Shown here: piece after piece, positions 14,390 to 56,899 of the stretch
Position numbering within the stretch: the first letter of the stretch is position 1
Layout: every line of letters begins with the position of its first letter
NCBI GenBank assembly: GCA_965217775.1
Contig: CBDCJH010000002.1
Span: 1,440,001-1,504,000, forward strand
Direction of reading: 5' to 3'
Source: Acidobacteriota bacterium
Lineage (GTDB): Bacteria > Acidobacteriota > UBA6911 > RPQK01 > JAJDTT01
DNA length: 64,000 nucleotides
Notes under the pieces: model-generated
Seen by the model: the letters and a program-made list of their open reading frames with translations, nothing else
Database searches by the model: none
Told to the model about the DNA's origin: nothing
Translations under genes and position numbers: made by a program

Positions 14390-17300
14390 TCACCTCAGAT
14401 AGATGAATTCCTTGGTGTTGAAGAGACTGTGGGCCACGTCCTTCCAGATCTCTTTGCTGGCCAGGATATGCTCTTGCGGGACTTGATACAAGCGTCCCAG
14501 CTTCCGGGTCAGGTCGCCAAACCGGGCCACCTCGTCGGGGCTCGGGGGCCGAGCGAACGCCCGGTTGAACATACGCCCCAAGCGCTCCCGGAGCGTCTCC
14601 CCCTCCCGTTCCAGCAGCCGGTCCGCCCAGTAGTCCGCCTGTTGGATCACGAAGGGGTCGTTGAGCATGGCCAGTGCTTGGGAGGGGACGTTGGTCACGT
14701 CCCGGCGCCCTCGGGAAACGGAGGGGACGGGGAAATCGAAAAGCTCCAGGAAACGGGCGCCCTCCATGCGGGTCACGCGCAGGTAGACACTCCGGCGCCC
14801 GTGGCCGTCCAATGGACCCGCGTGAAGCTTCCGGTATTCCTTGGTCTTCAGCCGATAGGGTTCGACGCTGGGACCGTAACGCAACGGATCGAGACGGCCC
14901 GAAGTGGCCAGGATCGAGTCGCGGATGGCTTCGGCCTCCAGCCGCCGGACCGGGTAGTGGTGCAGAAGCCGGTTCTCCGGGTCGATCCGGGAGGCTTCCT
15001 CGGTGGTTCGGCTCGACTGCTGGAAGGCTCGAGTGAGAACCAGCCGCCGGACCAGCCGCTTCAGGGACCAGCCGTCGGCGATGAACTGCCGGGCCAGATG
15101 GTCCAGAAGCAGGCCGTGGGAGGGTCTCTCGCCGAAGTTGCCGAAGTCGTTGATGGTGCCCACCAGACCTCGGCCGAAGAGGTAGTTCCAGACCCGGTTC
15201 ACCATGACCCGGGCGGTGAGGGGGTTTCGGGGGGAGGCAATGAGCTCCGCCAACTCCTGCCGGCCGCTGCCGTTGGTCTCCAGGGGCTGGCCGCCGGTGA
15301 GCACGGTCAGGTAGCGGCGAGGCACGGGATCGCCCGGCTTCTTGGCGTCTCCGTTCTGCAGCAGCGAATAGTCCCGTCCCGTCCCCATGTCCAGCAACGA
15401 GTTGATGGTCTGGGGCCGCGAGAGCCCGGATTCGATGGCTCTGTACTCGGAAATCAGTGCCGACAGCTTGGGAGTGAGATCGATGGAATTGTCCACGAGA
15501 TGGTTGGTGACGAGCCAGTGGACCCAGCGGACGTCGTTCTCGGTGGGCCTTCCCTGGGACCAGGCCTCCATGGCCTGACGGCTCCGCTCGGCATAACGCC
15601 GGGAGGCTTCCCGGGGATTTTGGGGCGCCGGGTCCCGAAACAAGGGCAACAAATGGGAAAGGTCGTTGTGAGGAGGATCATCCACGTCGTGGAGCATCGC
15701 CCGGGCGATGCCGAAATAGGATCCGGGCGCTTCCATCTTCTCCTCGGTGAAGCCCTTGATTCTCTTGGGCCGATCCGGGAGCCGTGGGTTGTTGGTCTTG
15801 GTGACCAACTCGACGTAGACGGCGTATCGCTCTTTGTCCTGAAGAGTCGAAACCTTCTGCCAGTTGAGATCGGAGCTGTCGAAGACTTCGATGCCCTCGC
15901 CCAGCATGCAGTTGTCCACGACCGCCCGGCGCCCTCCCAGCATTCCTCCCATGACCTGAAGGCTGAGAAACTTCTTTTCCTTGGTCAGGTAGGGGGAGCG
16001 GAGAGCCCCGTTGAGCCGTTCCGAAAGGGCGTGGGTGTAGATTCCCGCGGGATAGACACCGTTGACCGCCACCGGCCCCTCACGAGCCAGAGTGAATTCT
16101 CCGGACTGCGACCGGCCTTCGAGCAGTCCCACACCTTCGGGGTACCAGTCGCTCAGTGGAAGTGAAGTGAAGTTCTCCTGGTTGTATGCCTGGCGTTCCC
16201 GGATCTCTTTCAAGTGTTCCGGCGCCGCTTGCTCCCACAGTTCCCGGAATCGTTCCGGCCCCAGACCCACCTCGCAGGTGACCGTCGACCAGGGATAGAG
16301 GAAGCTCTCGGGGTCGACGCTCTCCTTCTGGAGCGCCTGGACCCACCGTTCCAAGCGTTGGGACCGGAGGCTTGGGCCGGCATCCGCCGCCCTTGGATCG
16401 ACCGGGGCCTGTGCGGCCAGGAGATAAGCCGGAATCTCTTCAACCTGTGTCAACCAGGCGGCGGCCAGTTCCGAACGAATCTGCGGCTTGAGGGCCCGCA
16501 ATCGCTGCATCAGGGGAGACTGGGATCCACCCGTGTCCAGGGTGCCGGTGACCGGCCGGGCACTGTTCAGAATTCCGTACAGGGCATAGTAGTCCTCGAT
16601 GGGAATAGGATCCAGCTTGTGATCGTGGCAGCGGGCGCAGGCGACGGAAAGCCCCTGGAAGGCCCGGGTGAGGGTGTCGATCTGGTCGTCCACCACATCG
16701 GTGCGAATTTCGCGGAACTCGATGCAGTCGTCGTGCCCCATCTCGCCCATGAGAAGGAATGCGGAACCGGTGGCCGACTCGTTGATGCCCAGCGGGACGT
16801 TGACTCGGGGACTCTCCAGCAGGTCGCCGGCGATATGTTCCCGGATCAGGTGATCGTAGGGAACGTCCTGGTTGAAGGCGCGGATCAGATAGTCCCGGTA
16901 GCGCCAGGCTCCCTTGACGATGTAGTTCCACTCGTAACCGTAGGTCTCGGCGAAACGCACCACGTCCATCCAGTGACGGGCCCAGTGTTCACCGAAATGG
17001 GGAGAATCCAGGAGGCGGTCCACGAAGTTGGCGTAGGCCTGCCCGGACGGATCCCGGAGCAACTCGTCCACACTGGCCGGATCCGGCGGCAGTCCCACAA
17101 CCGAAAAACTGAGGCGCCGGGCCAGGGTGCGGACATCGGTCCGCTCCGCCGGCTCCAACCCCTCCCTGCGGAGCGCCGCGAGGAGGAAGCGATCGACCGG
17201 GGTTCGAGACCAACTCTCATGATTCACCTGGGGTGGATCGGGATCGGCAACCGGCTGGAAGGCCCAGTGCTCCCGGGTCAGACGGGCGTAAAAATCGGGC

Positions 17301-17815
17301 TCTTCCGTGAGGTCCGGGCCTGCGGGCCACGGAGCCCCCATTTGGACCCAGCTCTCCAGATGATCGATCTCGGTGTCGGCCAGCATGCGGCCCAGAGGCA
17401 TCTTCAGATCCTGGTGCCGGACGGCCTGGATGATCAGGCTTTGGTCCGGGTCGCCGGGAACCAGTGCGGACCCTCGAAGGCCGCCTTTCAGGAGGGCCTC
17501 ACGAGAATCGACTCTGAGGGAGGAGAGCTGCTGCTCGGCGCCATGGCAGGAGTAACAGTTTTCGACCAACAGTGGGCGAACCTTCGTTTCGAAGAAGTCC
17601 ATGGCCTCGCGGTCGACTTTGGCGGCGGGTGGCGCCGAGAGAAGGAGCCGGCCACCGGAAAGGACCAGGAAGGGCAATAGAAGGAGACCAGCCGACAGGC
17701 TGCGCCTGACGTTCGGAGTCGCGATGGTACAGCGAAAAAGCACGTTCCTACCCGTGCCCAAACGATAGCATATCTTCCTGTCTTTGATGCACTTTTCTGA
17801 CGTTGGGTCAGTCAC
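14390..17815 (-). CDS. PSD1/planctomycete cytochrome c, DUF1549/DUF1553 protein
   Basis: CYSCH, FGEHWARHWMD, CARCHDHK, NPLTARVMVNRVW, RRLEAEAIRD; start codon uncertain. Confidence 0.9.
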   Translation of the reverse strand: MTDPTSEKCIKDRKICYRLGTGRNVLFRCTIATPNVRRSLSAGLLLLPFLVLSGGRLLLSAPPAAKVDREAMDFFETKVRPLLVENCYSCHGAEQQLSSLRVDSREALLKGGLRGSALVPGDPDQSLIIQAVRHQDLKMPLGRMLADTEIDHLESWVQMGAPWPAGPDLTEEPDFYARLTREHWAFQPVADPDPPQVNHESWSRTPVDRFLLAALRREGLEPAERTDVRTLARRLSFSVVGLPPDPASVDELLRDPSGQAYANFVDRLLDSPHFGEHWARHWMDVVRFAETYGYEWNYIVKGAWRYRDYLIRAFNQDVPYDHLIREHIAGDLLESPRVNVPLGINESATGSAFLLMGEMGHDDCIEFREIRTDVVDDQIDTLTRAFQGLSVACARCHDHKLDPIPIEDYYALYGILNSARPVTGTLDTGGSQSPLMQRLRALKPQIRSELAAAWLTQVEEIPAYLLAAQAPVDPRAADAGPSLRSQRLERWVQALQKESVDPESFLYPWSTVTCEVGLGPERFRELWEQAAPEHLKEIRERQAYNQENFTSLPLSDWYPEGVGLLEGRSQSGEFTLAREGPVAVNGVYPAGIYTHALSERLNGALRSPYLTKEKKFLSLQVMGGMLGGRRAVVDNCMLGEGIEVFDSSDLNWQKVSTLQDKERYAVYVELVTKTNNPRLPDRPKRIKGFTEEKMEAPGSYFGIARAMLHDVDDPPHNDLSHLLPLFRDPAPQNPREASRRYAERSRQAMEAWSQGRPTENDVRWVHWLVTNHLVDNSIDLTPKLSALISEYRAIESGLSRPQTINSLLDMGTGRDYSLLQNGDAKKPGDPVPRRYLTVLTGGQPLETNGSGRQELAELIASPRNPLTARVMVNRVWNYLFGRGLVGTINDFGNFGERPSHGLLLDHLARQFIADGWSLKRLVRRLVLTRAFQQSSRTTEEASRIDPENRLLHHYPVRRLEAEAIRDSILATSGRLDPLRYGPSVEPYRLKTKEYRKLHAGPLDGHGRRSVYLRVTRMEGARFLELFDFPVPSVSRGRRDVTNVPSQALAMLNDPFVIQQADYWADRLLEREGETLRERLGRMFNRAFARPPSPDEVARFGDLTRKLGRLYQVPQEHILASKEIWKDVAHSLFNTKEFIYLR

Positions 17816-24889: not shown

Positions 24890-25228
24890 TCAGCCTTCGC
24901 GCCGGAGTTCGTGGAGCATGATGCCGCGCCCCGCCAGTCTGGCTTCAAGCCACCGCTTGAGGGATGCCTGACTCTCTCGGGACCGGCGACCGGCGAGCAG
25001 ACCCTCCACGCTGATGTCCTCGTCGAGGTCCTCCCAATGAATGTGCTGGCTGCCGGCGTACAGCTCCCAGTTATTTCGTTCGTCCTCAGTCGCATGGGCA
25101 AGCCTTGGATACCAAGCCAGTGGAACCGAAATTATTCGTCCGTCAGCCAGCTCGGCCGTCAGCAGATCATCTGTCACTGTGATCCTCGTGGCTCCCGGCA
25201 CTTCCAATTCAACCGTCGAAGTAGTCAA
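24890..25228 (-). CDS. DUF2442 protein (putative antitoxin)
   Basis: LADGRIISVPLAWYPRL..AT...R, IHWEDLDEDISVEGLL; TTG start overlapping the upstream gene. Confidence 0.85.
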   Translation of the reverse strand: MTTSTVELEVPGATRITVTDDLLTAELADGRIISVPLAWYPRLAHATEDERNNWELYAGSQHIHWEDLDEDISVEGLLAGRRSRESQASLKRWLEARLAGRGIMLHELRREG

Positions 25229-25445
25229 GCCAAGCCTCCACGAATGCTTTGCTGTTTTGTTTGACAATTCTCTCAATCCGGCGAAGTTCGGTCCGACCAA
25301 TGCGACCACTTCTCTGCAGTACTACCGGGTCGAGCCAGAACTTGGCAAATCCACCATTGGTCCGGACATGTATATGCGGTGGCTCATCTCGATCACTTGA
25401 GACAAAGTAGAAACGATACGGGCCATCGCGAAGCACCGTCGGCAT
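25209..25445 (-). CDS. DUF4160 protein (putative toxin)
   Basis: MPTVLRDGPYRFYFVSSDRDEPPHIHV...AKFWLDP. Confidence 0.85.
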   Translation of the reverse strand: MPTVLRDGPYRFYFVSSDRDEPPHIHVRTNGGFAKFWLDPVVLQRSGRIGRTELRRIERIVKQNSKAFVEAWLDYFDG

Positions 25446-25788
25446 GTTATCACCTTCGTATCCGATATCCGGAAACCCAACCACGCCGGCAGGCAGCGAA
25501 TGGGGAGCACCTTCTCACCGATGTTGCCGATCTCACTTTGGCCTCGGGACACGTGGGGCGTAGGTGTCCCCATTCGGACTTCTGAGCGCGTCACTTTTCC
25601 AAACGGCTTGGCAACGATAGACGCGATAATTCTTCCAGCTTCTCGGAAGGTTCGGTTAGAAACCACGCAACGTGCTCACTTCGGGGTCGGCCCAATCTTC
25701 AGGCAGACTCTAGCCAGAAGTCACGCCTCGTAATCGGGCTTCGGGTTTCGGATATAATGGCGGCTCTTACAGCGAGGACAGACTCGAT

Positions 25789-28593
25789 TTGAAGCAAAAT
25801 TCACGACAGAAAACGGTTCAGGACATTTCCTCGACTTTTGGGCGAGGGGGATGGATCGCCACTGTTCTTCTGGTGAGTCTTCTCTTTTCTCCCCATGCCG
25901 CAGGGGAAACCGAGTTGGACAAAGTTGAGCTGAACCAGATCGAGGAGCGCTCCGAATCCCTGGCCAACTCCCTTCTGGAATTCTCGGTGACGGTCCGGGA
26001 GCGGGACATGGTTCGGATCAGCAAGTTCTTCGTGTCGCCGGCCAGGGTGACGCCGTGGCCGTCTCTCTCCGGCGCACCGGCTACGGAGTTCAAGTGGATC
26101 TCGACGGCCGCGCCCCGAATTGCACGGAAGCGTCCGAAGAAGATGCCCCGGACTGAACTGATGAAGAGCTGGGACAAGCTTCTGGGAACCTTCTCCTCCG
26201 TGGAGGATGCCCGATTCCAGGTCAAGGGGGCCCGCTTCAGCCAACGGAAGGGGAGAGTCGAGGGCAAGGGGGATCTCAAATTCTTCCTGATCGGACGTGA
26301 CGGCAAGAACCATCGATTCTGGGTGAAGGGAACGGGACGGCTGGTCGCGGTCCAGACGGGAGAGGAAAGCTGGCGGATCTCCGAATTCCGGGTGGACGAG
26401 GTCAGGACCATGCGGGCGGCTATGGACCTCTTCTCCGAGATCTGCATTCCGGCGGGCGTCTCTAATTCGCTGCCCCGATACGGAGAGCCGGGGAACGACG
26501 ATTTCGTCTATCACGGCGCCGCTGCGGGAGACCTGGACGGGGACGGGCTACAGGATCTGGTGGTTACGGGCATCAATCGAAACTACCTGTACCTGAACCA
26601 GGGTGGCCGGTTTCAAGACGTGGCCGACAGGGCGGGAATCTCGATAACGCCTCCTGGAACGGCCCCTCTCCTCCTCGACTACGACAACGATGGAGACCTG
26701 GACGTCTTCATGGCCTCGGTGGGAGAGCAGATGCTGTTCGAGAACCGTCTGGTCCCCTCCGGAAAGCTGCTCTTCTTCGACATCTCGCAAGAAGTCGGCA
26801 TAGCGGTGAACGCCATCGGTTTCAGCGCCACCGCCGGTGACGTGAACAAGGACGGATGGACTGACGTCTACGTCGCCTCCTACAACCGCTATGGCCGAGT
26901 CATGCCCGACTCCTGGCGCCGCGCCTCCAACGGGACTCCGAACCTGCTCTTTCTGAATCAAGGCGATGGGAGCTTCCGCGAAGCGGGGGCCGATTGGGGC
27001 GTCCGCGACCAGCGCTGGAGCTACGCCGCCCAGTTTGCCGACATCAACGGAGATGGACGGCTGGACCTCTACGTGGCCAACGACTTCGGCGAGAACGGCT
27101 ACTACGTCAACCTGGGGGACCGGTTCGAGGACCGGGCCACCAGCCTGGGGCTTCTGGACCCCGGCAACGGCATGGGCGTCTCCTTCGGGGACTTCAACAA
27201 CGACGGGCGGATCGACCTCTACGTCACCAACATGTCCTCCACCGCCGGGAACCGGATCCTGGACCGGTTGTTTCCGCAGGGAAGGGGAGACCGTAGTGGA
27301 CTCAAGAAGCTGGCGGCGGGAAACACTCTGTTCGAAGGCGTGGACGAGGGTGGTTTCCGCGACGTGAGCGCGAAGTTCGGACCCTTCGTCGCCGGATGGG
27401 CCTGGGGAGGAGTCTTCGTGGACTTCGACAACGACGGTTGGGAGGACCTCTACTCTCCCAACGGGTTCATCAGCGGCAAGTCCATGAAAGACACATGAAG
27501 CTTCTTCTGGCGCCACGTCGTGGCGTCCACGGTCGGCGACGAGAAGGCCGGCAACCAGGACTACCAGAAGAACCACATGGCTCTGCTCTTCGAGCAGGGA
27601 CTGTCCTTCAGCGGATTCGAACGGGACGCCCTTTTCCTGAATCGGGAGGGAAGACGGTTCCAGGATATCTCAGGGGTCTCGGGCATCGACTCCATCTCCG
27701 ACGGACGTTCGGCCGTCACCGTCGACCTGGACAATGACGGCGATCTGGACATCTTTCTCACCACCATCCAGGGAGAAGGACATCTCCTGTTCCGGAACAA
27801 CGTGGGCCAGGACAAGGGCTTCATCCGGGTCGAGCTGGAGGGCACGAAGAGCGGCAAGGATGCCTTCGGCGCCCAGGTCCGCGTCAAGACTCCCTTCGGC
27901 GTCCAGACCCGGATCCTCTCGGGAGGCAGCGGTTTCATGGCTCAGCCCGACCGGCGGCTCCTGTTCGGTCTGGGGGAATCCCGGGAGGCCGAATGGATGG
28001 AGGTCACCTGGCCCTCCGGTGTCCGCCAGCGGCTCGGTCCCATTCCCGCCGGCGTCTCCTTGAAGCTGGTGGAGGAACAACCCGACTACCAGACCCTGTC
28101 TCTGCCGTCGGCCGCTCTACCCGATCCCCTGGAGGAGGAACAGGTCCTCTGGAGCAAGCTGCAGATCAAACGGGGCCTACCCATGCCTGAATTGGCGCTG
28201 AAGACGCTTCCGGACGGGGAGGAGATCTCGCTTCCGCTGGAAAAGGGAACGTCCTATCTGGTGAATCTCTGGGCCACCTGGTGCGGGCCCTGCCGGAGGG
28301 AGATGCCTGAATTGGAAGCCGCCCAGGCCAAATTGGAAGAGAACGGGATCCGGGTGATCGGTCTCAGTCTGGACCAGGGGGTTCCCCTCGCCGACGTGGA
28401 ATCGTATGCCCGGGGCCTGGGGGTGTCGTATCCGATCTACCTGCTGGAGCAGGAGGATCTGAAGAAGATCTTCGCCGGAGACGAAAGGTTCGTCCCCTTC
28501 TCGATCCTGGTGGACGAGGAAGGCCGGGTCGCCGACAGCCATGCCGGTTGGGGCGAAAAGGCCAAGCGGAAGCTGGATCGCCTTTGCCGGTAG
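25789..28593 (+). CDS. Putative selenoprotein: FG-GAP/CRTAC1 + ASPIC/UnbV + TlpA-like thioredoxin (Sec at codon 570)
   Basis: Two track ORFs lie in the same frame, separated only by TGA 27496-27498; read-through gives ...KSMKDT-U-SFFWRHVVAST...; domain order is continuous; C-terminal NLWATWCGPC. Confidence 0.75.
27508..27529 (+). promoter_or_regulatory. Bacterial SECIS-like stem-loop
   Basis: TGG-CGCCAC-GTC-GTGGCG-t-CCA; the apical loop starts with GU after an 18-nt spacer from the UGA. Confidence 0.65.
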
Positions 28594-28707
28594 GGAATGG
28601 GCGACCTGGGAGGGGACATTCCCCTCTGCCTCCCATCAGATGCGGCCTGATCTAGTCCGTAATTCCTCTCAGGGGTATCAGAAATCGGGACCGGGAGCAG
28701 GAATAGG

Positions 28708-30039
28708 ATGGAATTCTCCAGACGTAGTTTCTTTCGAACGGCAGGACACCTGCATCTCCTGCTGCCGCTCCTGTGTTGCATCCATCAGAGCGCTCAGGCG
28801 GAGCAATCGCTCTTCCGGAGCTCCGACATGACCCTGGTGCAGATGAATGGTGTGCGGCTCCGGTTGGGCAAGCCGGTCCAGGTCACGGAGAGCCACGGTT
28901 ACGCCTATGTGCCCACCCTGGCAAGGTTTCCCGGGGGTGAGCTTCTGGTCACCTATTCGCTGGTTCCCGACACCAACGAGAACCCGTCCAACGTGGGAGC
29001 GTTCCAGATCTCCCGGGATGGAGGAAGGACCTGGGGCCACCGATACGAGGTGCTGCCCGAGCACCACCCCCTGATCTATGTGCCCCAGGAGGACGGCTCC
29101 CTGGTGGCCATACCGTCCCACCTGTTTCCCGTTTCCCCTGGAGACAGGCACAATTTCCGGGCTGCCTATCTCCGCTTCGAGCCGGGCGCGCGCCGCATGA
29201 TCCTGGAGCCGGATGGGGTAAGGGTCGTGGACTGGCCCTGGCCCGTGAACGTGGTGCCCCGTCCCGTGCCGAAGTCGAACTGGTACGTGAGAATGGCCTT
29301 CGACGGAATCGCCCTGAAGCTGGAGGACAGATGGCTGGCCACCGCCTACTCCCGGAGGGGAGATGAGCCAATGCAGCTCAACGTCGTCCTTGTCTCCCGG
29401 GACCAGGGACGAACCTGGCGCTACCTCTCCACTATCGCGGACGCGGCGATTTTGCCCACTCCACCCCGAAAGTGGGCCGGCGGCCCCAGCGAGACGGCCC
29501 TGGTCCGACTCGCCGACGGGGAGTTGATGGCGGTCTTTCGGGTGGGAAACGGACGGGACTGGAACCTGCGCCGGGCCTACAGCAAGGATGGTGGGACGAC
29601 CTGGTCCCAAGCCGACGTGATCCCGGCCTACAGCGTGGCGCCCAGCATGGTTCGCACCCGAGGCGGCACCATCGTCCTCTCCACGGGCCGGCCAGGAATA
29701 TCGCTCTGGTTCTCTACCGACGGGAGGGGACGCCGGTGGCAGGAGGTGGACGTGGTGAAACACCACAACCTCCACGTCCCAGATGAAACCTACCGCATCC
29801 TGCCCTATCCGTTTGACAATCCCCGGGAGATGAACACCTGGTCCTACACGGAGCTGGTGGAAGTCGCCCCCAACCGCCTCCTCCTGGTGTACGACAGAGT
29901 GCCGCCCGACCCCAGAATCGTTGCCTATGGAACCGATCCCCGTAGCACCGCGGCGGAGCGCCTGAGCTGGAGGCCCAGTCTCGACTCCGGAGAGCGGTTC
30001 CGCATCTTCCTGCTGCCCATCGAGGTCGAGGGGAACTGA
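28708..30039 (+). CDS. Sialidase-family/BNR (Asp-box) repeat protein
   Basis: Asp boxes SRDGGRTW, SRDQGRTW, SKDGGTTW, STDGRGRRW; SRRSFF twin-arginine-like N-terminus. Confidence 0.8.
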   Translation: MEFSRRSFFRTAGHLHLLLPLLCCIHQSAQAEQSLFRSSDMTLVQMNGVRLRLGKPVQVTESHGYAYVPTLARFPGGELLVTYSLVPDTNENPSNVGAFQISRDGGRTWGHRYEVLPEHHPLIYVPQEDGSLVAIPSHLFPVSPGDRHNFRAAYLRFEPGARRMILEPDGVRVVDWPWPVNVVPRPVPKSNWYVRMAFDGIALKLEDRWLATAYSRRGDEPMQLNVVLVSRDQGRTWRYLSTIADAAILPTPPRKWAGGPSETALVRLADGELMAVFRVGNGRDWNLRRAYSKDGGTTWSQADVIPAYSVAPSMVRTRGGTIVLSTGRPGISLWFSTDGRGRRWQEVDVVKHHNLHVPDETYRILPYPFDNPREMNTWSYTELVEVAPNRLLLVYDRVPPDPRIVAYGTDPRSTAAERLSWRPSLDSGERFRIFLLPIEVEGN

Positions 30040-30457: not shown

Positions 30458-31909
30458 CTATGCGAGCAACTTGTCCACCACGTGTCCGCCCACGTCCGTG
30501 AGGCGGAATTGCCTTCCCTGGAACTTGTAGACCAGCCTCGTGTGGTCCAGGCCCAGCAGATGCAGGATGGTGGCGTGCATATCGTGCATGTGGATGGGGT
30601 CTTCCACGATGTCGTAGCCCAGTTCGTCCGTCTTCCCGATGGTGATTCCCGGCTTGGTGCCGCCGCCGGCCAGCCACATGGTGAAGGCGTACGGATGGTG
30701 GTCCCGCCCCGGATACTTTCCAGGATGCTCGTTCATGGGAGTCCGGCCGAACTCGCCGCCCCAGATCACCAGTGTGTCCTCCAGCAGGCCCCGGTCCTTC
30801 AAGTCCTTGATCAGAGCGGCCGAGGCCTGGTCGGTTTCCCGGCAGCGGGTCTGCAAGCCCTCTTTGTGAATGATGGACCCTTGCGCGATCAGTCCGTGGT
30901 GGTCCCACCCGTGGTGATAGAGCTGGACGAAACGGACACCCCGTTCCACCAAGCGCCGGGCCAGGAGGCAGTTGTTGGCGAAGGACTCCTTTCCGGGCTC
31001 GGTCCCGTAGAGACGGTGGATGTGCTCGGGCTCATCGCTGATATCCATCAGTTCGGGGACGCTGGTCTGCATCCGGTAGGCCAACTCGTAGGACGCGATG
31101 CGGGTCAGGATCTCCGGATCGCCCACCGCCTGGTATTGCCGCTGGTTGAGCTTTTTCAAAGCGTCCAGCGACCGGCGGCGCGCCTTTCGGTTCATCCATT
31201 CGGGGTCGGACAGGAACAGAACCGGATCGCCCTGGGACCGGAACTGCACGCCCTGATAGACGGTGGGCAGGAAGGCGGGACCCCAGCACGAATTGCCGGC
31301 GAAGACCTGCACCGGGCCCGATTGCAGGACCACGAAGCCGGGCAGGTCGCGGTTCTCGCTGCCCAGTCCGTAGGTCAGCCACGAGCCCATGCTGGGCCGT
31401 CCGATGAGATGGTGGCCCGTGTTCATGAACAGTTGGGCCGGTGCGTGGTTGAACTGCTCGGCGTGGACGGATTTGACGATGGTGATGTCGTCCACGACGT
31501 TGGCGAGGTGGGGCAGCAGCTTCGAGAGCTCGGCCCCAGACTCACCGTATCGATCATAGGAGTAGGGAGAGGCCAAAGCCTGAGGCGTCCCTCGCAGAAA
31601 GGCGAACCGTTTGCCGTCCAGCGTGCCTTCCGGGACGTTCTGTCCATCCAAGGCCGTGAGCCGCGGCTTGTTCTCGAACATATCGAGCTGAGACGGACCG
31701 CCCGACATGAACAGGAAGATGATGTTCTTGGCCTTGGGTTCGAAGTGCCCCGCCTTGGGCGCCATGGGATGCCGGGCGTCGAGAGCGGGAGCCGCAAAGA
31801 GCCGGTCGTCCATCAGCCCGGCCAGAGCGACGGACCCGATGCTCATCCCTCCCCGGAAGAAGAAATGACGGCGGGTGATGGCTTTCAGCATCTCCTGTTG
31901 GATTTTCAT
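30458..31909 (-). CDS. DUF1501 domain protein (Tat signal)
   Basis: [33 protein letters not shown]. Confidence 0.9.
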
Positions 31910-31927
31910 GAGTGCTCTTCCTCGCGC

Positions 31928-34900
31928 TCAGGGTCGAGAGATGGTTTCGTCCAGATTCAGGAGCACCTGGGCCACGCTGGTCCAAGCCATGAAGTCCTTG
32001 GATGCCGATCCTCCGGACGAAGGCCGGCTTCGCGCCGCATCCGACCCGGAGCCAGGCAGGTTCTCCAATTGGTCCCGGTACAGGGCCGTGAGGTCCTGGA
32101 GCTCCTCCTGCGAGGGCCGGCGGCCCAGGCAGAGACGGAATCCGTGAGAGATCCGGTCGGCGATTGCCGGGCCCGTCTCCGATACCATGCGGTCGGCCAG
32201 TCCTCGCGCGGCTTCCAGGAAGGTGCGGTCGTTCATCAAGTTCAGGGCCTGCAACGGCGTATTGGAGCGGCTGCGGACGACACAGGTGGTCTCGCGGCTC
32301 GGGGCATCGAAATTGGCATAGAAGGGATAGGGACGAATCCGCTTCAAAAAGGTGTAGAGACCCCGCCGGTAGCGGTCGTCTCCCCGTCCCGTGATCCAGG
32401 TGTCGGCCACGTAAAGGTTGTCCCAGAGTCCCGCGGGCTGGGGCGGGAAGACGCTGGGACCGTGCGGTCTCAGACTGAGGAGGCCCGCGGCGCTCAACGC
32501 GCTGTCCCGGATCATTTCAGCATCCATCCGAAAGCGGGGCCCTCGGGCGTAGAGCTGGTTGGAGGGGTCGTTTTCCCGCAAGGTCTCTTCCATCCGGGGG
32601 TCCTGCCGGTAGGTTGCCGAAGTGACCATCAAGCGGTGCATGGCTTTCATGGACCATTTCTGCTCCACGAACTCGGTGGCGAGCCAATCCAGAAGCTCCG
32701 GATGGGTCGGACGTTCGCCCTGGATCCCCAGGTTTTCGGGCGTCTTCACCAAGGCCCTCCCGAAATGATCGGACCAGAGCCGATTCATGGTGACCCTTCC
32801 CACCAGCGGGTTCTCGGGAGAGACCAGCCAGCGGGCCAGGGTGAGGCGGTTGGGCGGCGTCTCGCTCTCGGGCAGGGGATGGAGCACCGAGGGGACGCCC
32901 GGCTGGACCTCCTGGCCCGGGTTCAGAAAGCTTCCCTTGACGAAGACATGGCTGGTCCGGGGCTTGTCCAGCTCCTTCATGACCAGGCTGTTGGGTGAGG
33001 TCAACTGTTTCCAGAAGGCCAGAAGCTCAGAGAGCCGCTGCTTCTTCGGCGTCAACATCGGGGCGGTCCCGCGATAGTAATCGTCCAGGACCTTCCGTTG
33101 GTTCTCGGTCCGCCGGCTGGCGGGAACGGCCAGGACACGTTCCACCCGGGTCGGGAGCTTGACGTTTCGGGCCGCATCCTGTTCCCGGGTGACGGAAAAA
33201 CGAAAACGTCCGATGGTCTTGCCCGGCGTCTCTCCCTCATGCCTCAACCGGATGGTGAACCGGGTTCCACGCGGAAAGCCCAAGGGAGACTCCGGCGTGA
33301 AAATGGCTTGGCGTTCGACCCGGTTCTGGTGACTGGTTCCGCTGTTGGACCAACCGGTGGTGGGGTCGCCGTCCAGGGCGCGGCGAATGCCGAAGGTAAC
33401 CGGATCGATCTCGGCCGCGGCACCGCTGAACGCCACGGGCGAGGAGGACCCCGGCGCCGTCATCGGCTCAGCCCGGACTTCGAATCCGGTCAGCAGGAAA
33501 TCCCCCTCGGAATTCCGGCTCGAACCGCCGTGAGGCAGGCTGGGATCGGTCAAGGTTTCCAGACGGATGGCCGTGATCCCCTCGACCTGGGTCTCGGTCA
33601 CGACCACGTACGTTTCGCGGCCCGGTTTCGGTCCCGAAGCCAGCAGGGAACCATCCTCCTGGCGGGTCAGTTCCGCTCCCCCCAGGGAAAAGTAGGTGAC
33701 CGGGTCCAGGAAGCTCCAGGAGACCATGTCCCCGGCGGTCTTCGTTTCCCATTCCTTCTGCACCGCCTCCAACTCCGGCGTGGAACGTTTCAGCGCAGCT
33801 TTCAGATCCACGATCTCCCGCTCGATATCGGAGCGGTATGTGGACAGATAGTCGGCTGGAGGCAGGGTGATGCTGGCGCTATGCGGCCGTATCTTGGTCT
33901 TCGGATTGTTCTCCTCCATCGTGTTGTTGAAGAAGGCGAAGATCCGGAAGTACTCCTCCTGAGAGATGGGATCGTACTTGTGATCGTGGCACTGGGCGCA
34001 GGCGATCGTGCTCCCGAGCCAGACGGTTCCGGTGGTCTCGACCCGGTCCAGGATAGCCGCCACCCGGTACTCCTCCGCGTCGGTCCCACCCTCGGTGTTG
34101 ATCATGGTGTTGCGGTGGAATCCGGTGGCGATCTTCTGCTCGGGAGTGGCGTCGGGAAGCAGGTCTCCTGCTACCTGCTCGATGGTGAATTGATCGAAGG
34201 GCAGGTCCGAGTTGATGGCCTTGATCACCCAGTCGCGATAGAGCCACATGTTGCGCCGCCGGTCGTGGATGTAGCCGTTGGTGTCGGCATAGCGGGCCAG
34301 GTCCAGCCAGGGCCGGGCCCAGCGCTCTCCATAGCGGGGCGACGAAAGGAGGCGGTCGACCAGACGCTCGTAGGCCAGCGGTCGCCGGTCCTCGACGAAG
34401 GCGTCCACTTCCTCGGGGGTCGGCGGAAGACCTATGAGATCCAGGGTGACACGGCGGACCAGGGTTTCCCGAGAGGCTTCCGCGGACGGTTCCAGACCTT
34501 CCTGTTCCAACCGCTCCAGGACGAAGCGGTCGATGGTATTACGGACCCAGGCCGCATCCCTGACCTGGGGCAAAGGGGGACGGACCGGCTTGACGTAGGC
34601 CCAATGTTTCTCGCTGGAGGCACCCGTCCCATCGATGGACTCGGTCCAGGGGGCCCCCTGATCCAGCCAGACTCGGATCATCTCGACCTGGTCCGGCGGC
34701 AGCTTGCCCGTGAGAGGCATGGGAGACCCCGGAGCATCACCGACGATCTTCCGGTAGAGCAGACTCGAGGAACCGTCACCGGGCAGGATGGCCGGTCCCG
34801 ACTGCCCGCCCTTCAGGGCCGCCTCCCGGCTGTCCAGACGTAGACCGTTCATGCTCTGGTCGACGCCGTGGCACTGGTTGCAACTGGCTTCCAGGATGGG

Positions 34901-35041
34901 CCGGATGTCCCGGGCGAAGTCGAGGTCCCGGTCTGCGGACGAGGGAGACCCCGATCCGCTCATAAGAACAACGGTGTTCAAGCCGCTTAGAAAGACGAGG
35001 AATATCCAGTTTTGGAATCGCAAGACTCGCGCCCACCGCAT
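31928..35041 (-). CDS. PSD1/planctomycete cytochrome c, DUF1549/DUF1553 protein
   Basis: CNQCH, YGERWARPWLD, CAQCHDHKYDP, RSNTPLQAL. Confidence 0.9.
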   Translation of the reverse strand: MRWARVLRFQNWIFLVFLSGLNTVVLMSGSGSPSSADRDLDFARDIRPILEASCNQCHGVDQSMNGLRLDSREAALKGGQSGPAILPGDGSSSLLYRKIVGDAPGSPMPLTGKLPPDQVEMIRVWLDQGAPWTESIDGTGASSEKHWAYVKPVRPPLPQVRDAAWVRNTIDRFVLERLEQEGLEPSAEASRETLVRRVTLDLIGLPPTPEEVDAFVEDRRPLAYERLVDRLLSSPRYGERWARPWLDLARYADTNGYIHDRRRNMWLYRDWVIKAINSDLPFDQFTIEQVAGDLLPDATPEQKIATGFHRNTMINTEGGTDAEEYRVAAILDRVETTGTVWLGSTIACAQCHDHKYDPISQEEYFRIFAFFNNTMEENNPKTKIRPHSASITLPPADYLSTYRSDIEREIVDLKAALKRSTPELEAVQKEWETKTAGDMVSWSFLDPVTYFSLGGAELTRQEDGSLLASGPKPGRETYVVVTETQVEGITAIRLETLTDPSLPHGGSSRNSEGDFLLTGFEVRAEPMTAPGSSSPVAFSGAAAEIDPVTFGIRRALDGDPTTGWSNSGTSHQNRVERQAIFTPESPLGFPRGTRFTIRLRHEGETPGKTIGRFRFSVTREQDAARNVKLPTRVERVLAVPASRRTENQRKVLDDYYRGTAPMLTPKKQRLSELLAFWKQLTSPNSLVMKELDKPRTSHVFVKGSFLNPGQEVQPGVPSVLHPLPESETPPNRLTLARWLVSPENPLVGRVTMNRLWSDHFGRALVKTPENLGIQGERPTHPELLDWLATEFVEQKWSMKAMHRLMVTSATYRQDPRMEETLRENDPSNQLYARGPRFRMDAEMIRDSALSAAGLLSLRPHGPSVFPPQPAGLWDNLYVADTWITGRGDDRYRRGLYTFLKRIRPYPFYANFDAPSRETTCVVRSRSNTPLQALNLMNDRTFLEAARGLADRMVSETGPAIADRISHGFRLCLGRRPSQEELQDLTALYRDQLENLPGSGSDAARSRPSSGGSASKDFMAWTSVAQVLLNLDETISRP

Positions 35042-52202: not shown

Positions 52203-53909
52203 GTGCAGCAAACTTCCGGCAGGCGCGAAGCAAGAGTCCGACCAGCGGGAGCATTGCTGGTTGGAGTCTGCCTCATCGCTGTCCTTTCGCTGAATGGTCA
52301 GGTTTTCTCCTCGATCGACCACGCTGTTGCTCCCGTGTTCATAGAGGTGAGCCAAGAGGCGAAGCTGTTGTTTTTCCATGTGAATGGAGCCTCTCCTCAA
52401 AAATATATTGTCGAGACGGTAGGCTCGGGCGCGGGGTTTTTCGACTATGACAATGACGGCTGGATGGACGTGTACTTTGTGAACGGGGGCCCTACGCCGG
52501 CAACCGTCCCCGCCGTCGCGACCGCGAATCAGCTATTTCGCAACAACCGGGATGGAACCTTCACCGAGGTGACGGAAAAAGCCGGGGTCGGAGACACTTC
52601 CTACGGCGTCGGATGCGCTTTCGCCGACTACGACAATGACGGTCACGTGGACATTTATGTGACCAACCTGGGTCCCAATCTCCTATATCACAACAACGGC
52701 GACGGGACCTTTACCGAGATCGCGTCCAAGGCCGGCGTTGCAGATCGACTCTGGGGCACCAGCGCGGCCTTTGCAGACTACGATCAGGACGGCAATCTCG
52801 ATCTTTATGTGTGCAACTATCTGCAATTTTCCTTCGCCGGTCATCGGCGCTGCTATGTCGGGGAGGTGCCGATCTACTGCTACCCGCACAGTTATGAAGG
52901 CGCTCCCAATGCGCTCTATCGCAACAACGGAGACGGTACCTTCGCGGAAGTCACGGCAATAGCGGGAGTGAGGGAAGACCCTCAGTACAGCAAAAGCCTG
53001 GGGGTCATCTGGCTCGACATGGACGGCGATGGCGACGTGGACCTCTATGTAGCCAACGACACCACCGCCAATTACCTGTTTGAAAACAAAGGCAACGCGA
53101 CCTTCGAGGACCTCTCTCTGGTTTCGGGAACTGCCTTCAGCGGTGCGGGGGTTCCCCAGGCAGGCATGGGGATCGATGCGGCGGATCTGGACGGAAACGG
53201 CAGCTTCGACATCTTCGTCACCAATTTTTCGCTGCAGCACAATGCCCTCTATTGGAACGACGGTTCCGGTATCTTCAGCGATCGCATCCTGGAGTCCAAC
53301 CTGGCCGGTCCCGGTTTCCTGCCTCTGGCTTTCGGGACCAATTTCCTGGATTACGACAACGACGGGCTCGTCGATCTCTTTGTGGCGAATGGACATGTCT
53401 TTGACAACGCCGAATTGATCAATCCCAGTCTCCAGCATGCCCAGGCGAACCAGTTGTTTCGCCACCTGGGACAGGGACGCTTTCTGGAGATCTCGTCACA
53501 GGCGGGAGCCTATTTCTCCCGCAAGAATGTTTCCCGTGGTTCGGCCGCCGGAGACTTCAATAACGACGGCAAGCTGGATCTGCTGGTGACGAACAAAAAC
53601 GACCGGGCCGACCTGCTGGAGAACCGGACCGCCAGCCCCCACCAGTGGCTCAAATTCAAGTTGGAAGGAGCCGACTGCAACCGGGACGCGGTCGGTGCAA
53701 AAATAACCTTGACGGCCGGAGCGTATCGCCTGACTCAAGAAGTCCGGGCAGGCAGCAGCTATTTGAGCCAGAGCGACCAGCGACTCCACTTTGGACTGGG
53801 GGATCGAACCCGTGTCGATACCATTCAAGTCTCATGGCCCTGCGGAAAAACGCAGAATATTGTGCCCCCCCAAGAGTTCAATCGGATCATCCATCTGCAA
53901 GAAGAATAG
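52203..53909 (+). CDS. CRTAC1 family protein (FG-GAP + ASPIC/UnbV)
   Basis: ETVGSG.GFFDYDNDG, NRDAVGAK, SSYLSQSD.RLHFGLG, VSWPCG. Confidence 0.9.
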   Translation: MQQTSGRREARVRPAGALLVGVCLIAVLSLNGQVFSSIDHAVAPVFIEVSQEAKLLFFHVNGASPQKYIVETVGSGAGFFDYDNDGWMDVYFVNGGPTPATVPAVATANQLFRNNRDGTFTEVTEKAGVGDTSYGVGCAFADYDNDGHVDIYVTNLGPNLLYHNNGDGTFTEIASKAGVADRLWGTSAAFADYDQDGNLDLYVCNYLQFSFAGHRRCYVGEVPIYCYPHSYEGAPNALYRNNGDGTFAEVTAIAGVREDPQYSKSLGVIWLDMDGDGDVDLYVANDTTANYLFENKGNATFEDLSLVSGTAFSGAGVPQAGMGIDAADLDGNGSFDIFVTNFSLQHNALYWNDGSGIFSDRILESNLAGPGFLPLAFGTNFLDYDNDGLVDLFVANGHVFDNAELINPSLQHAQANQLFRHLGQGRFLEISSQAGAYFSRKNVSRGSAAGDFNNDGKLDLLVTNKNDRADLLENRTASPHQWLKFKLEGADCNRDAVGAKITLTAGAYRLTQEVRAGSSYLSQSDQRLHFGLGDRTRVDTIQVSWPCGKTQNIVPPQEFNRIIHLQEE

Positions 53910-55216: not shown

Positions 55217-56899
55217 GTGTATTCCTCAGCCAAATGCAAGGCGCAACGTAGCTGTTCAGGGCCCCTGAGGGTCAGCTTGCTGTGTCTTTTCTGCCTGGTC
55301 TCCTCCTGGCCGCACACCTTGGCGCTTTCCGATTCGGCTGTCCCTCCCTCGTTTGTCAATGTGAGCAGGGAGGCACAGTTGTCCTACAGGCACGTCAGCG
55401 GAACCCTGCCGATTCGGCATATTGCCGAGACGATGGGGTCGGGCGGAGGATTTCTGGACTATGACAATGACGGCTGGCAAGACATCTACCTGGTCAACGG
55501 AGGAGCCCGGCCGGGCATCAGGGTGGCGATTTCCGCCAAGAACCGGCTATTTCGCAACCACCGGGACGGGACCTTCACCGACGTCACAACCGCCGTCGGG
55601 GTGGGCGATCCTTCGTACGGCATGGGATGCGCTTTCGCCGACTACGACAATGATGGGTTCGTGGATATTTACGTGACCAACCTGGGTCCCAACGTCATGT
55701 ACCACAATAACGGCGACGGCACGTTCACGGATGTTACACAAGAAGCGGCTGTGGGAGATCCGCTCTGGAGCACCAGCGCGGCTTTCGGCGACTATGACGG
55801 GGACGGATATCTGGATCTTTATGTGTGCAACTATCTGAAGGTTCCCTTTGCGGCTTCCAGCGCCATCACTTGTCCGTACAATTATAACGGCGTTCCCAAT
55901 ACCCTTTATCGCAACCGGGGCGATGGCACTTTTGAGGAGGCTACCGCACAAGCCCGAGTCAGAGAAGATTCTTCGTACAGCAAGAGCCTGGGGGTCATCT
56001 GGCTCGACGCGGACAACGATGGGGATTTGGACCTCTACGTAGCCAACGATACCACCGCCAATTTCCTGTTTGAGAATCGCGGCGATGGAACGTTCGAGGA
56101 CATTTCACTGGTCTCGGGAACCGCTTTTGGTGAATCGGGAGCTCCCCAGGCTGGAATGGGAGTGGATGCGGCGGACCTCAACGGAAACGGTCTCTTCAAC
56201 ATCTTTGTCACCAATTATTCCTTGCAGCACAATGCTCTTTATTGGAACGAAGGTTCCGGTATCTTCAGCGACCGCGTCGTGGATTCGCGCCTGGCCGGAC
56301 CCAGTTTCTTGCCATTGGGCTTCGGGGCCAATTTCTTCGACTATGACAACGATGGGTTCGTCGATCTCTTTGTGGGCAACGGGCATGTCCTGGAAAACAC
56401 CAAAGAGGTCAGCCCCAGCACGGAATACCGCCAACTGAACCAGTTGTTTCGCCATCTGGGCCAGGGACGCTTTGTGGAAGTTTCCTCCCAAGCGGGCGCT
56501 TATTTCTCACGCAAGAACGTCAGACGCGGCTCGGCGACGGGAGATTTCAACAACGATGGGAAGGTGGATCTTCTGGTCACCAACAACAATGACGGCGCCG
56601 ACCTGCTGGAGAACCGGACCGCTGGCCCCAACCATTGGCTGAAACTCAAGTTGGAGGGAACCCACTGCAACCGAGACGCGGTTGGGGCAAAGGTCACATT
56701 GACGGCCGGAGATTATCGGCGGACTCAGGAAGTACGGGCCGGCAACAGCTACTTGAGCCAGAGCGACCTGCGGCTCCACTTCGGGGTAGGGAATCGAACC
56801 TACATTGATTCTCTACAGGTCTCCTGGCCCTGCGGAAAAAAGCAGCGTCTTGCTTTGATCGAGAAATTGGATCAGATCATCCACATTCAGGAAAAGTAG
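55217..56899 (+). CDS. CRTAC1 family protein (paralog of 52203)
   Basis: Same motif series, with long stretches near-identical to 52203..53909; start codon uncertain. Confidence 0.9.
   Translation: MYSSAKCKAQRSCSGPLRVSLLCLFCLVSSWPHTLALSDSAVPPSFVNVSREAQLSYRHVSGTLPIRHIAETMGSGGGFLDYDNDGWQDIYLVNGGARPGIRVAISAKNRLFRNHRDGTFTDVTTAVGVGDPSYGMGCAFADYDNDGFVDIYVTNLGPNVMYHNNGDGTFTDVTQEAAVGDPLWSTSAAFGDYDGDGYLDLYVCNYLKVPFAASSAITCPYNYNGVPNTLYRNRGDGTFEEATAQARVREDSSYSKSLGVIWLDADNDGDLDLYVANDTTANFLFENRGDGTFEDISLVSGTAFGESGAPQAGMGVDAADLNGNGLFNIFVTNYSLQHNALYWNEGSGIFSDRVVDSRLAGPSFLPLGFGANFFDYDNDGFVDLFVGNGHVLENTKEVSPSTEYRQLNQLFRHLGQGRFVEVSSQAGAYFSRKNVRRGSATGDFNNDGKVDLLVTNNNDGADLLENRTAGPNHWLKLKLEGTHCNRDAVGAKVTLTAGDYRRTQEVRAGNSYLSQSDLRLHFGVGNRTYIDSLQVSWPCGKKQRLALIEKLDQIIHIQEK

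Follow-up and report, generated by a model that had tools for sequence, protein, structure and literature searches.

The stretch of DNA considered here (the window) comprises 64,000 nucleotides of the forward strand of an Acidobacteriota bacterium genome (assembly GCA_965217775.1, contig CBDCJH010000002.1, positions 1,440,001 to 1,504,000), and our analysis concerns a plus-strand reading frame at window positions 25789-28593, which is open throughout except for one TGA at 27496-27498. This TGA terminates an open reading frame (ORF) of 569 aa with a TTG start (25789..27498), and an ORF of 357 aa with a GTG start (27520..28593) follows in the same frame, the seven codons between them (27499-27519) containing no stop. 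A sequence-only reading of the window, made before this analysis, had proposed that the two ORFs are split only by the TGA, which the ORF coordinates and the stop-free gap confirm. The read-through product has 934 residues, as that reading had estimated, with the proposed selenocysteine (Sec, U) as residue 570 in a sequence identical to the one claimed (...NGFISGKSMKDT-U-SFFWRHVVAST...). The two intact CRTAC1 genes that it had cited as single ORFs elsewhere in the window were also found, as FG-GAP- and ASPIC-containing genes at 52203..53909 and 55217..56899. General reassignment of TGA is excluded, because TGA ends 8 of the 15 Pfam-supported ORFs of the window. Taken together, the sequence comparisons described below suggested that 25789-28593 is very probably one gene in which TGA is decoded as Sec.

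Homologs were collected by a six-frame search that ignored stops, with 369 aa surrounding the site as query. The second-best match is a paralog in the host genome itself, 41% identical and 4.1 Mb away (G000:C2:5610566-5611675), which contains exactly one TGA, at the equivalent position (...NGFITNEDTKDL-U-SFLWRQVV...); the paralogous gene (L054:2974..7182) shares the architecture of the window gene, including a thioredoxin domain with WCPPC, and carries C-terminal TPR repeats in addition. Exactly one TGA was present in 38/42 match rows from 40 relatives and the host genome. A sample of 401 genomes of the phylum yielded matches at E <=1e-50 in 84 genomes (103 rows), with one TGA in 74 rows and none in 29, so that the TGA form occurs in 59/401 genomes; among the best 46 rows (>=52% identity), 45 have the TGA. 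When 90 loci were fetched and aligned, the TGA fell at the same codon in 68/68 TGA-bearing loci, and a scan that took a single genome for each prokaryotic species, whose loci overlap with this aligned set, showed TGA in 78 and Ser in 2 of the best 80 of 287 relatives. The record titles in the species scan are mostly those of Acidobacteriota (Pyrinomonadaceae, Blastocatellia, Chloracidobacterium and Thermoanaerobaculia). Four of the TGA-form genes (L155, L160, L161 and L201) come from metagenome-assembled genomes whose titles, as unchecked labels, name Planctomycetota, Latescibacterota and Gemmatimonadaceae; either the family extends outside Acidobacteriota or these bins are mislabelled. Three genomes are flagged as unpublished, and nothing stated here depends on them: G016 contributes the TGA row L078, G182 a single row lacking the TGA and G063 a single selA row.

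The sequence-only reading had expected TGA or Cys at this site in homologs. The conserved TGA bears out the first part, since every TGA-bearing homolog examined has it at this codon; in homologs lacking Sec, the residue is mostly Ser, Glu, Asn or Asp and seldom Cys. In the 22 TGA-less aligned loci, the site residue is E in six, N in four, S in three, D in two, G in two, and V, P, L, A or Y in one each, three of these loci (L079, L080 and L122) being poorly aligned. The codon following the TGA encodes Ser, through AGC, AGT or TCG, and is succeeded by a conserved [FLQ]FWR[HQ]VV; the conservation of this Ser and of the peptide past the TGA indicates that translation continues across it.

These data bear directly on the reading of the TGA as a true stop, by which the locus would be a split gene, a pseudogene, two separate genes or the product of a sequencing error. 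Public annotation agrees with such a stop, about 92 of the best 120 database matches being N-terminal pieces of ~569 aa (which also bears out the earlier claim that standard annotation splits the gene), and the GTG at 27520 could start a second ORF. Nevertheless, the same TGA recurs in the 68 aligned loci and in 78/80 species-scan loci from many assemblies, the seven codons from TGA to GTG encode the conserved SFFWRHV with synonymous changes, the break would hit the start of a helix inside the fold predicted by AlphaFold2, and the TGA-less homologs are single ORFs. We therefore regard a true stop as the least probable of all the alternatives weighed here. A sequencing error and a recent pseudogene are both ruled out by the conservation of the TGA across assemblies.

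Downstream of the TGA, the hairpin UGGCGCCAC-GUC-GUGGCG(U)CCA is the local minimum-energy fold of 27507-27531. It starts 10 nt downstream of the TGA, with a spacing of 18 nt from TGA to loop. Its stem can be drawn with 9 bp and a single bulged U, or with 8 bp including a G-U pair, and is topped by the loop GUC at 27517-27519. With the U of UGA numbered 1, positions 14-21 pair with 25-32 around the loop G22 U23 C24, and the bulging of U31 lengthens the stem to U13-A34, which matches the drawing of the sequence-only reading. The local fold has an energy of -13.2 kcal/mol (z = -2.5), equalled by 2/200 shuffles. Published constraints for the bacterial selenocysteine insertion sequence (SECIS) comprise a loop of 3-9 nt, a stem of 4-16 bp, a spacing of 16-37 nt and an energy <=-7.5 kcal/mol, with a G in the first two loop positions that is usually followed by G or U (PMC13188914). 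The window hairpin agrees with these in loop, stem, spacing and energy, in line with the geometry claimed for it.

The hairpin is also conserved among the TGA-bearing loci, with compensatory changes. Comparison was based on 57 distinct ungapped sequences (58 distinct among the 68, with L102 dropped for an N), in 95-98% of which the four core pairs are formed. Pair 18-28 appears as C-G in 42 sequences, G-U in six, U-A in five and G-C in one, and is unpaired in three; the covariation score was 0.131, compared with 0.063 in shuffles, and was reached by 0/500 shuffles. Slid registers pair far less, except for a -3 slide at 75%. Divergent members (L140, L141, L100 and L138) have a hairpin of other letters at the equivalent place, with loops of G then G/U, and in L140 the hairpin is formed even though the sequence there is unrelated. 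As a control, 19 TGA-less homologs were taken, leaving out the three poorly aligned ones: the same pairs are formed in 42-79% of these, the full six-pair core occurs in 1/19 of them versus 40/57 TGA forms, and the mean energy is -6.9 kcal/mol versus -12.4 kcal/mol in the TGA forms.

The host genome (6.43 Mb in 2 contigs, 97.9% complete) encodes the machinery for Sec decoding, the presence of which the sequence-only reading had left to be checked. All four components were found above curated cut-offs, namely tRNA-Sec (69 bits against a cut-off of 47; called by ARAGORN as SeC with anticodon tca), selB (311 bits), selA (545 bits) and selD (298 bits). In the phylum sample, selA is present in 55 of the 59 carriers of the TGA form, which is to be expected and adds little, because 300/401 genomes of the sample have selA; non-TGA forms are found in genomes both with and without it.

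The machinery, the hairpin and the stop-codon usage of the window together bear on another possibility, that near-cognate or suppressor decoding inserts a standard amino acid (Trp, Cys, Gly or Arg) at the TGA. The many residues accepted at the site in homologs would suit such decoding. However, TGA is not reassigned, ending as it does 8/15 supported ORFs of the window; the hairpin of SECIS geometry is conserved in TGA forms only; selA or tRNA-Sec is present in 59/59 carrier genomes of the phylum sample; and a leaky stop kept from 100% down to <40% protein identity would be hard to explain. Decoding as a standard amino acid thus appears very improbable, only slightly less so than a true stop.

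The domain architecture of the read-through protein is summarized in Table 1. The Pfam matches are FG-GAP_3 in six stretches, UnbV_ASPIC at 692-756 and Redoxin/AhpC-TSA at 796-921, all scoring above their cut-offs (PF13517, 139.7 bits; PF01839, 79.7 bits; PF07593, 57.5 bits; PF08534, 49.1 bits; PF00578, 47.7 bits), and the Pfam scan found no family over the N-terminal alpha+beta domain (residues 45-217). The product is probably exported, to judge from its putative signal peptide; residues 1-40 have a low predicted local distance difference test score (pLDDT) in the AlphaFold2 model, with a helix at 22-31. This model, built from a 41-row alignment, has an overall pLDDT of 90.3 and a predicted template modelling score of 0.89. 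It places Sec570 as the first residue of an alpha-helix (570-581), which is followed by a second helix (590-602) and then by the last blade, whose DxDxDG motif (D646-D654) is invariant in the 41 rows. The earlier proposal of a Sec in a beta-propeller loop thus stands with respect to its place between propeller blades, but the predicted setting is the helix start of a two-helix insert and no plain loop. The thioredoxin-domain motif reads WATWCGPC, its cysteines being residues 832 and 835, and the distance from Sec to the CxxC is 262 residues in the window gene and 246-273 in the seven forms measured.

Table 1. Features of the read-through gene in window coordinates.
Feature	Position	Strand	Basis or remark
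Whole gene, read through the TGA	25789..28593	+	934 residues and TAG stop at 28591-28593; frame open except for the TGA
Putative signal or anchor segment, residues 1-38	25789..25902	+	Translation: basic stretch, hydrophobic WIATVLLVSLLFS, HAAG
N-terminal alpha+beta domain, residues 45-217	25921..26439	+	AlphaFold2 secondary structure, pLDDT mostly >85
FG-GAP/VCBS beta-propeller blades ahead of the Sec codon, residues 240-569	26506..27495	+	Pfam FG-GAP_3 and FG-GAP; match to CRTAC1 9etn_A
In-frame TGA, proposed Sec codon (residue 570)	27496..27498	+	Conserved codon across homologous loci
Two-helix insert starting with Sec, helices 570-581 and 590-602	27496..27594	+	AlphaFold2, pLDDT 84-91 there
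Proposed bacterial SECIS hairpin	27508..27529	+	Fold, conservation, covariation, contrast with Sec-less homologs, published constraints
Last FG-GAP blade beyond the insert, residues 614-670	27628..27798	+	AlphaFold2 strands 614-670
UnbV_ASPIC domain, residues 692-756	27862..28056	+	Pfam PF07593, E = 1.3e-15
TlpA/ResA-like thioredoxin-fold domain, residues 796-921	28174..28551	+	Pfam Redoxin/AhpC-TSA; PDB ResA/TlpA by sequence and fold
CGPC active-site motif, C832 and C835	28282..28293	+	Both Cys in 48/48 Sec forms

This position of the TGA bears on a further reading, in which the codon acts chiefly as a selenium-sensing switch: at low selenium the 569-aa incomplete propeller would be made, in the presence of selenium the full protein, and the choice itself would be the function. 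Sec decoding in bacteria competes with termination, PMC4513850 reporting a recoding efficiency of 30-40%, and the site tolerates many residues in homologs, both of which would accord with a switch. On the other hand, the short product is unlikely to fold, because the propeller is cut before its last blade and the ASPIC domain, and a switch alone leaves unexplained the strict co-occurrence of Sec with an intact CxxC described below. We consider a switch as the chief role to be distinctly unlikely, although it could coexist with a redox or a metal-binding role.

The relation between the Sec site and the CxxC was examined in 90 full-length rows (48 with Sec, 4 with Cys and 38 with other residues), which were chosen from the matches and are no random sample. 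The full-length database homologs are 46-63% identical over the searched part; many have S at the site, others V, L, A, Q, E, R, T, I or D, and P0007, P0028, P0037 and P0086 are the Cys forms. The CxxC is intact in 48/48 Sec forms. Of the 38 forms with neither Sec nor Cys, five keep it, 10 have the fold without the first Cys and 23 have no aligned motif; the ten losses of the first Cys read SxxC, AxxC or AxxS, with AhpC-TSA/Redoxin (Pfam) present in the four scanned. Among the Cys forms, two have the CxxC and two are without a thioredoxin domain. Across 21 Sec forms, no Cys/Sec column is conserved other than U570, C832 and C835. Positions specific to Sec forms (conserved in >=90% of them and in <=40% of the others) lie nearly all in the thioredoxin active site (N826, W828, C832, P834, C835, E838, P840, Y881 and P882); besides the Sec site, no more than four conservative differences (Y412, N436, F560 and S608) lie outside it.

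A FastTree phylogeny was computed from the propeller-ASPIC columns minus the Sec column; it is unrooted, with long branches and hand-chosen rows. Sec forms are found on all its major branches, the deepest included, and at least six changes are needed for the Sec label and at least six for the CxxC label, changes that may be losses or gains given the missing root and the long branches. Among seven independent pairs with contrasting states at the site, a parallel change of the CxxC was seen in a mean of 4.7, no change in a mean of 2.3 and a change in the opposite direction in none.

Based on these results, we propose with a probability of about 0.75 that the gene encodes a single exported protein, decoded with Sec, in which Sec570 and C832/C835 may make up a redox site. 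SelB and tRNA-Sec would decode the UGA at 27496-27498 as Sec, directed by the downstream hairpin, and the selenol of Sec570, at the N-terminus of its helix, would be the reactive centre of an extracytoplasmic redox site, working with C832/C835 of the fused thioredoxin domain. The Sec may react with an oxidised substrate and then be reduced by the CxxC, which may in turn be re-reduced by a membrane protein of the CcdA/DsbD type; one DsbD_TM-type gene is present in the host genome. That Sec570 and the CxxC form a redox relay, as their co-occurrence suggests, we put at about even odds; the same co-occurrence is what speaks for the proposal of the sequence-only reading that the WCGPC domain could recycle Sec. 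More tentatively, and with greater doubt, an inter-domain selenol-dithiol centre on a CRTAC1-like propeller may be ancestral to the family and may have been lost several times by joint decay of Sec and CxxC; if this were true, loss by decay with no swap to Cys would mean that Cys cannot do the job.

Several observations weigh against this explanation. Cys occupies the site in only 4/42 Sec-less rows, which is unusual for a catalytic Sec, and the coupling of Sec to the CxxC is not strict, because five forms with neither Sec nor Cys keep the CxxC and two Cys forms are without a thioredoxin domain. The sign test on the independent pairs is not significant (median p 0.06), and the rows of the tree were chosen and constitute no sample. 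As for decoding, selA was not found in four carriers of the TGA form (G009, G341, G117 and G279), each of which has a tRNA-Sec of 68-76 bits, above the cut-off. The hairpin is partly accounted for by the conserved peptide W-R-[HQ]-V-V-A together with the high G+C content of the genome; its loop GU opens a Val codon that Sec and Sec-less forms share, and the Sec-less homolog L107 is also able to form it. In addition, the 71-nt stretch after the TGA, folded whole, is no better than shuffles (z = -0.52), and no Rfam family was matched in 25000-29500 in a scan at E up to 1.

The main rival of the proposed redox site is a metal-binding site of Sec and two Cys. Here Sec would be inserted but would form no recycled redox centre, serving instead in a structural role or in the binding of soft metals or metalloids, for instance Cu, Hg or As; Sec570 would bind alone or with C832/C835, and the thioredoxin domain would act on other substrates. 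Such a role would fit a site that is variable and mostly non-Cys in Sec-less homologs, and the only Sec-specific positions of the propeller and insert, apart from the Sec site, are the four conservative differences listed above. One selenol and two thiols, at the sole conserved Cys/Sec positions, would moreover suit a three-ligand site, and several metal-binding selenoproteins are known from the current catalogue (PMC13188914). Against this, the Sec forms keep the full TlpA/ResA redox signature (WCxPC, a Glu three residues on, and the YP of the cis-Pro loop), so that electron transfer fits better than metal storage, and no metal-related gene adjoins within the window. We judge metal binding or a structural role rather unlikely, yet clearly more probable than a switch.

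The neighbours of the gene in the window are a methyltransferase, a DUF2442/DUF4160 pair, a BNR-repeat protein, DUF1501 and PSCyt/PSD proteins, and this neighbourhood suggests no pathway within the window. The DUF2442 (24890..25309) and DUF4160 (25209..25484) ORFs overlap on the minus strand immediately upstream of the gene. Two PSCyt1/PSCyt2/PSD1 (DUF1549/DUF1553) genes lie at 14390-17815 and 30458-35041, both on the minus strand, and one of them adjoins a DUF1501 gene. FG-GAP/ASPIC proteins are greatly expanded in the host genome, with 138 matching stretches, and three such genes are in the window (919-3843, 52203-53909 and 55217-56899).

Some observations on the Sec machinery and on other possible selenoproteins are recorded here in their own right. 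In the related genome G060 (C1:1154850-1158321), selA (1156960-1158321, plus strand) follows the TGA-form gene, at a distance of ~0.5 kb and in the same orientation, and in G203, which has the same genus code, selA and the TGA-form gene are ~4 kb apart. The DsbD_TM-type gene of the host genome (G000:C2:3521870-3522505) lies ~6 kb from selB (3514179-3516083). The best FdhA-like match in the host genome is below cut-off and has no in-frame stop, and its selD match also has no in-frame stop. A crude scan of this genome for a TGA with open flanks rich in G+C at third codon positions and a perfect-stem SECIS-like hairpin gave 48 candidates; it recovered the window gene and is no census, because it missed the known paralog, and in none of the 20 candidates subjected to Pfam did a domain run across the TGA. 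Six copies of a repeated ORF resembling a mobile element occur on C2 (99926, 1423402, 2605420, 3221817, 3831990 and 5671854), one of them 17 kb before the window; in each of them, a perfect hairpin with arms of 25 bp (-58.7 kcal/mol) lies 37 nt beyond a TGA.

The sequence-only reading had not recognised the protein as one of the classical bacterial selenoprotein families. A review of 2026 tabulates 119 families and subfamilies of prokaryotic selenoproteins, and consistent with that view no FG-GAP, VCBS, CRTAC1 or ASPIC family is among them (PMC13188914, Table 1). The terms FG-GAP, CRTAC1, ASPIC, VCBS and propeller are absent from the main texts of PMC13188914, PMC12013277 (deep-Sep) and PMC13326102 (BSepDB), and the same five terms together with UnbV are absent from the supplements examined of the latter two, while other supplements could mention the family. 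In the full-text literature searched, no paper joins selenocysteine with FG-GAP, ASPIC, UnbV, VCBS or CRTAC1 in a bacterial protein, though literature outside it could, and an NCBIfam scan of the window protein gave no selenoprotein model above cut-off. Thus the homolog data very probably define a new selenoprotein family, common in Acidobacteriota and missed by standard annotation.

A large and taxonomically wide family would thereby be added to the bacterial selenoproteins, and a systematic annotation error would be corrected, as public records give a short "VCBS/FG-GAP repeat protein" and a separate thioredoxin-like piece. A Sec on a beta-propeller scaffold, outside a thioredoxin-fold/CxxU motif and seldom replaced by Cys, offers a case for asking what Sec is capable of that Cys is not, as well as a first functional handle on the bacterial CRTAC1/ASPIC proteins, which are very numerous in such genomes. 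If the selenol-dithiol centre is real, it would represent a new type of extracytoplasmic selenoenzyme. As neither a Sec-type formate dehydrogenase nor a Sec-type SelD is apparent in the host genome, the family could be a main reason for the retention of the Sec machinery in many Acidobacteriota.

Like the CRTAC1/ASPIC-UnbV family, the window protein has FG-GAP/VCBS blades with DxDxDG followed by ASPIC/UnbV, and murine CRTAC1 (9etn_A) is its top PDB match (profile E = 5.7e-52; fold E = 1.2e-26, with a template modelling (TM) score of 0.74 on the target). However, the Sec-holding stretch (profile positions about 506-631) did not align with CRTAC1, and the window protein adds the N-terminal domain, the fused thioredoxin domain and the Sec codon. 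Residues 781-921 match ResA/TlpA (E = 1e-19 to 1e-22; fold TM 0.6-0.8) and share the WCxPC motif of the TlpA/ResA/DsbE oxidoreductases, but score only 64.3 bits with ResA (NF002854, cut-off 170) and 57.4 bits with TlpA (NF047696, cut-off 230); the domain therefore shares the fold and is an equivalog of neither. Those oxidoreductases are small and membrane-anchored, whereas in the window protein the domain forms the C-terminal portion of 934 aa in all.

The closest selenoproteins in kind are the UGC-containing TlpA, WAxxUGC (NF041054) and UxxC/CxxU proteins, which are likewise exported, TlpA-like in fold and selenium-dependent (PMC13188914). In these thioredoxin-fold selenoproteins Sec replaces a Cys of the CxxC, whereas in the window protein WCGPC is intact and the Sec is 262 residues upstream in another domain; the window protein scores 35 bits with NF041054, far below the cut-off of 300. 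In Neisseria PilB (Trx-MsrA-MsrB), a thioredoxin-like domain regenerates the neighbouring catalytic domain, and thioredoxin reductase operates a Sec relay. The proposed passage of electrons from a CxxC to a second reactive Cys or Sec within one protein may resemble these two systems in mechanism; PilB thioredoxin-domain chains (2h30, 2jzr and 2fy6) are among the weaker PDB sequence matches, and the window protein differs from both in having no Msr or flavin domain. The window protein very probably belongs to a new family of selenoprotein within the known SelB/SECIS-dependent kind, and the family is unusual in that its Sec lies outside a thioredoxin-type motif, that Cys seldom stands in for it in homologs and that the CxxC partnering it belongs to another domain.

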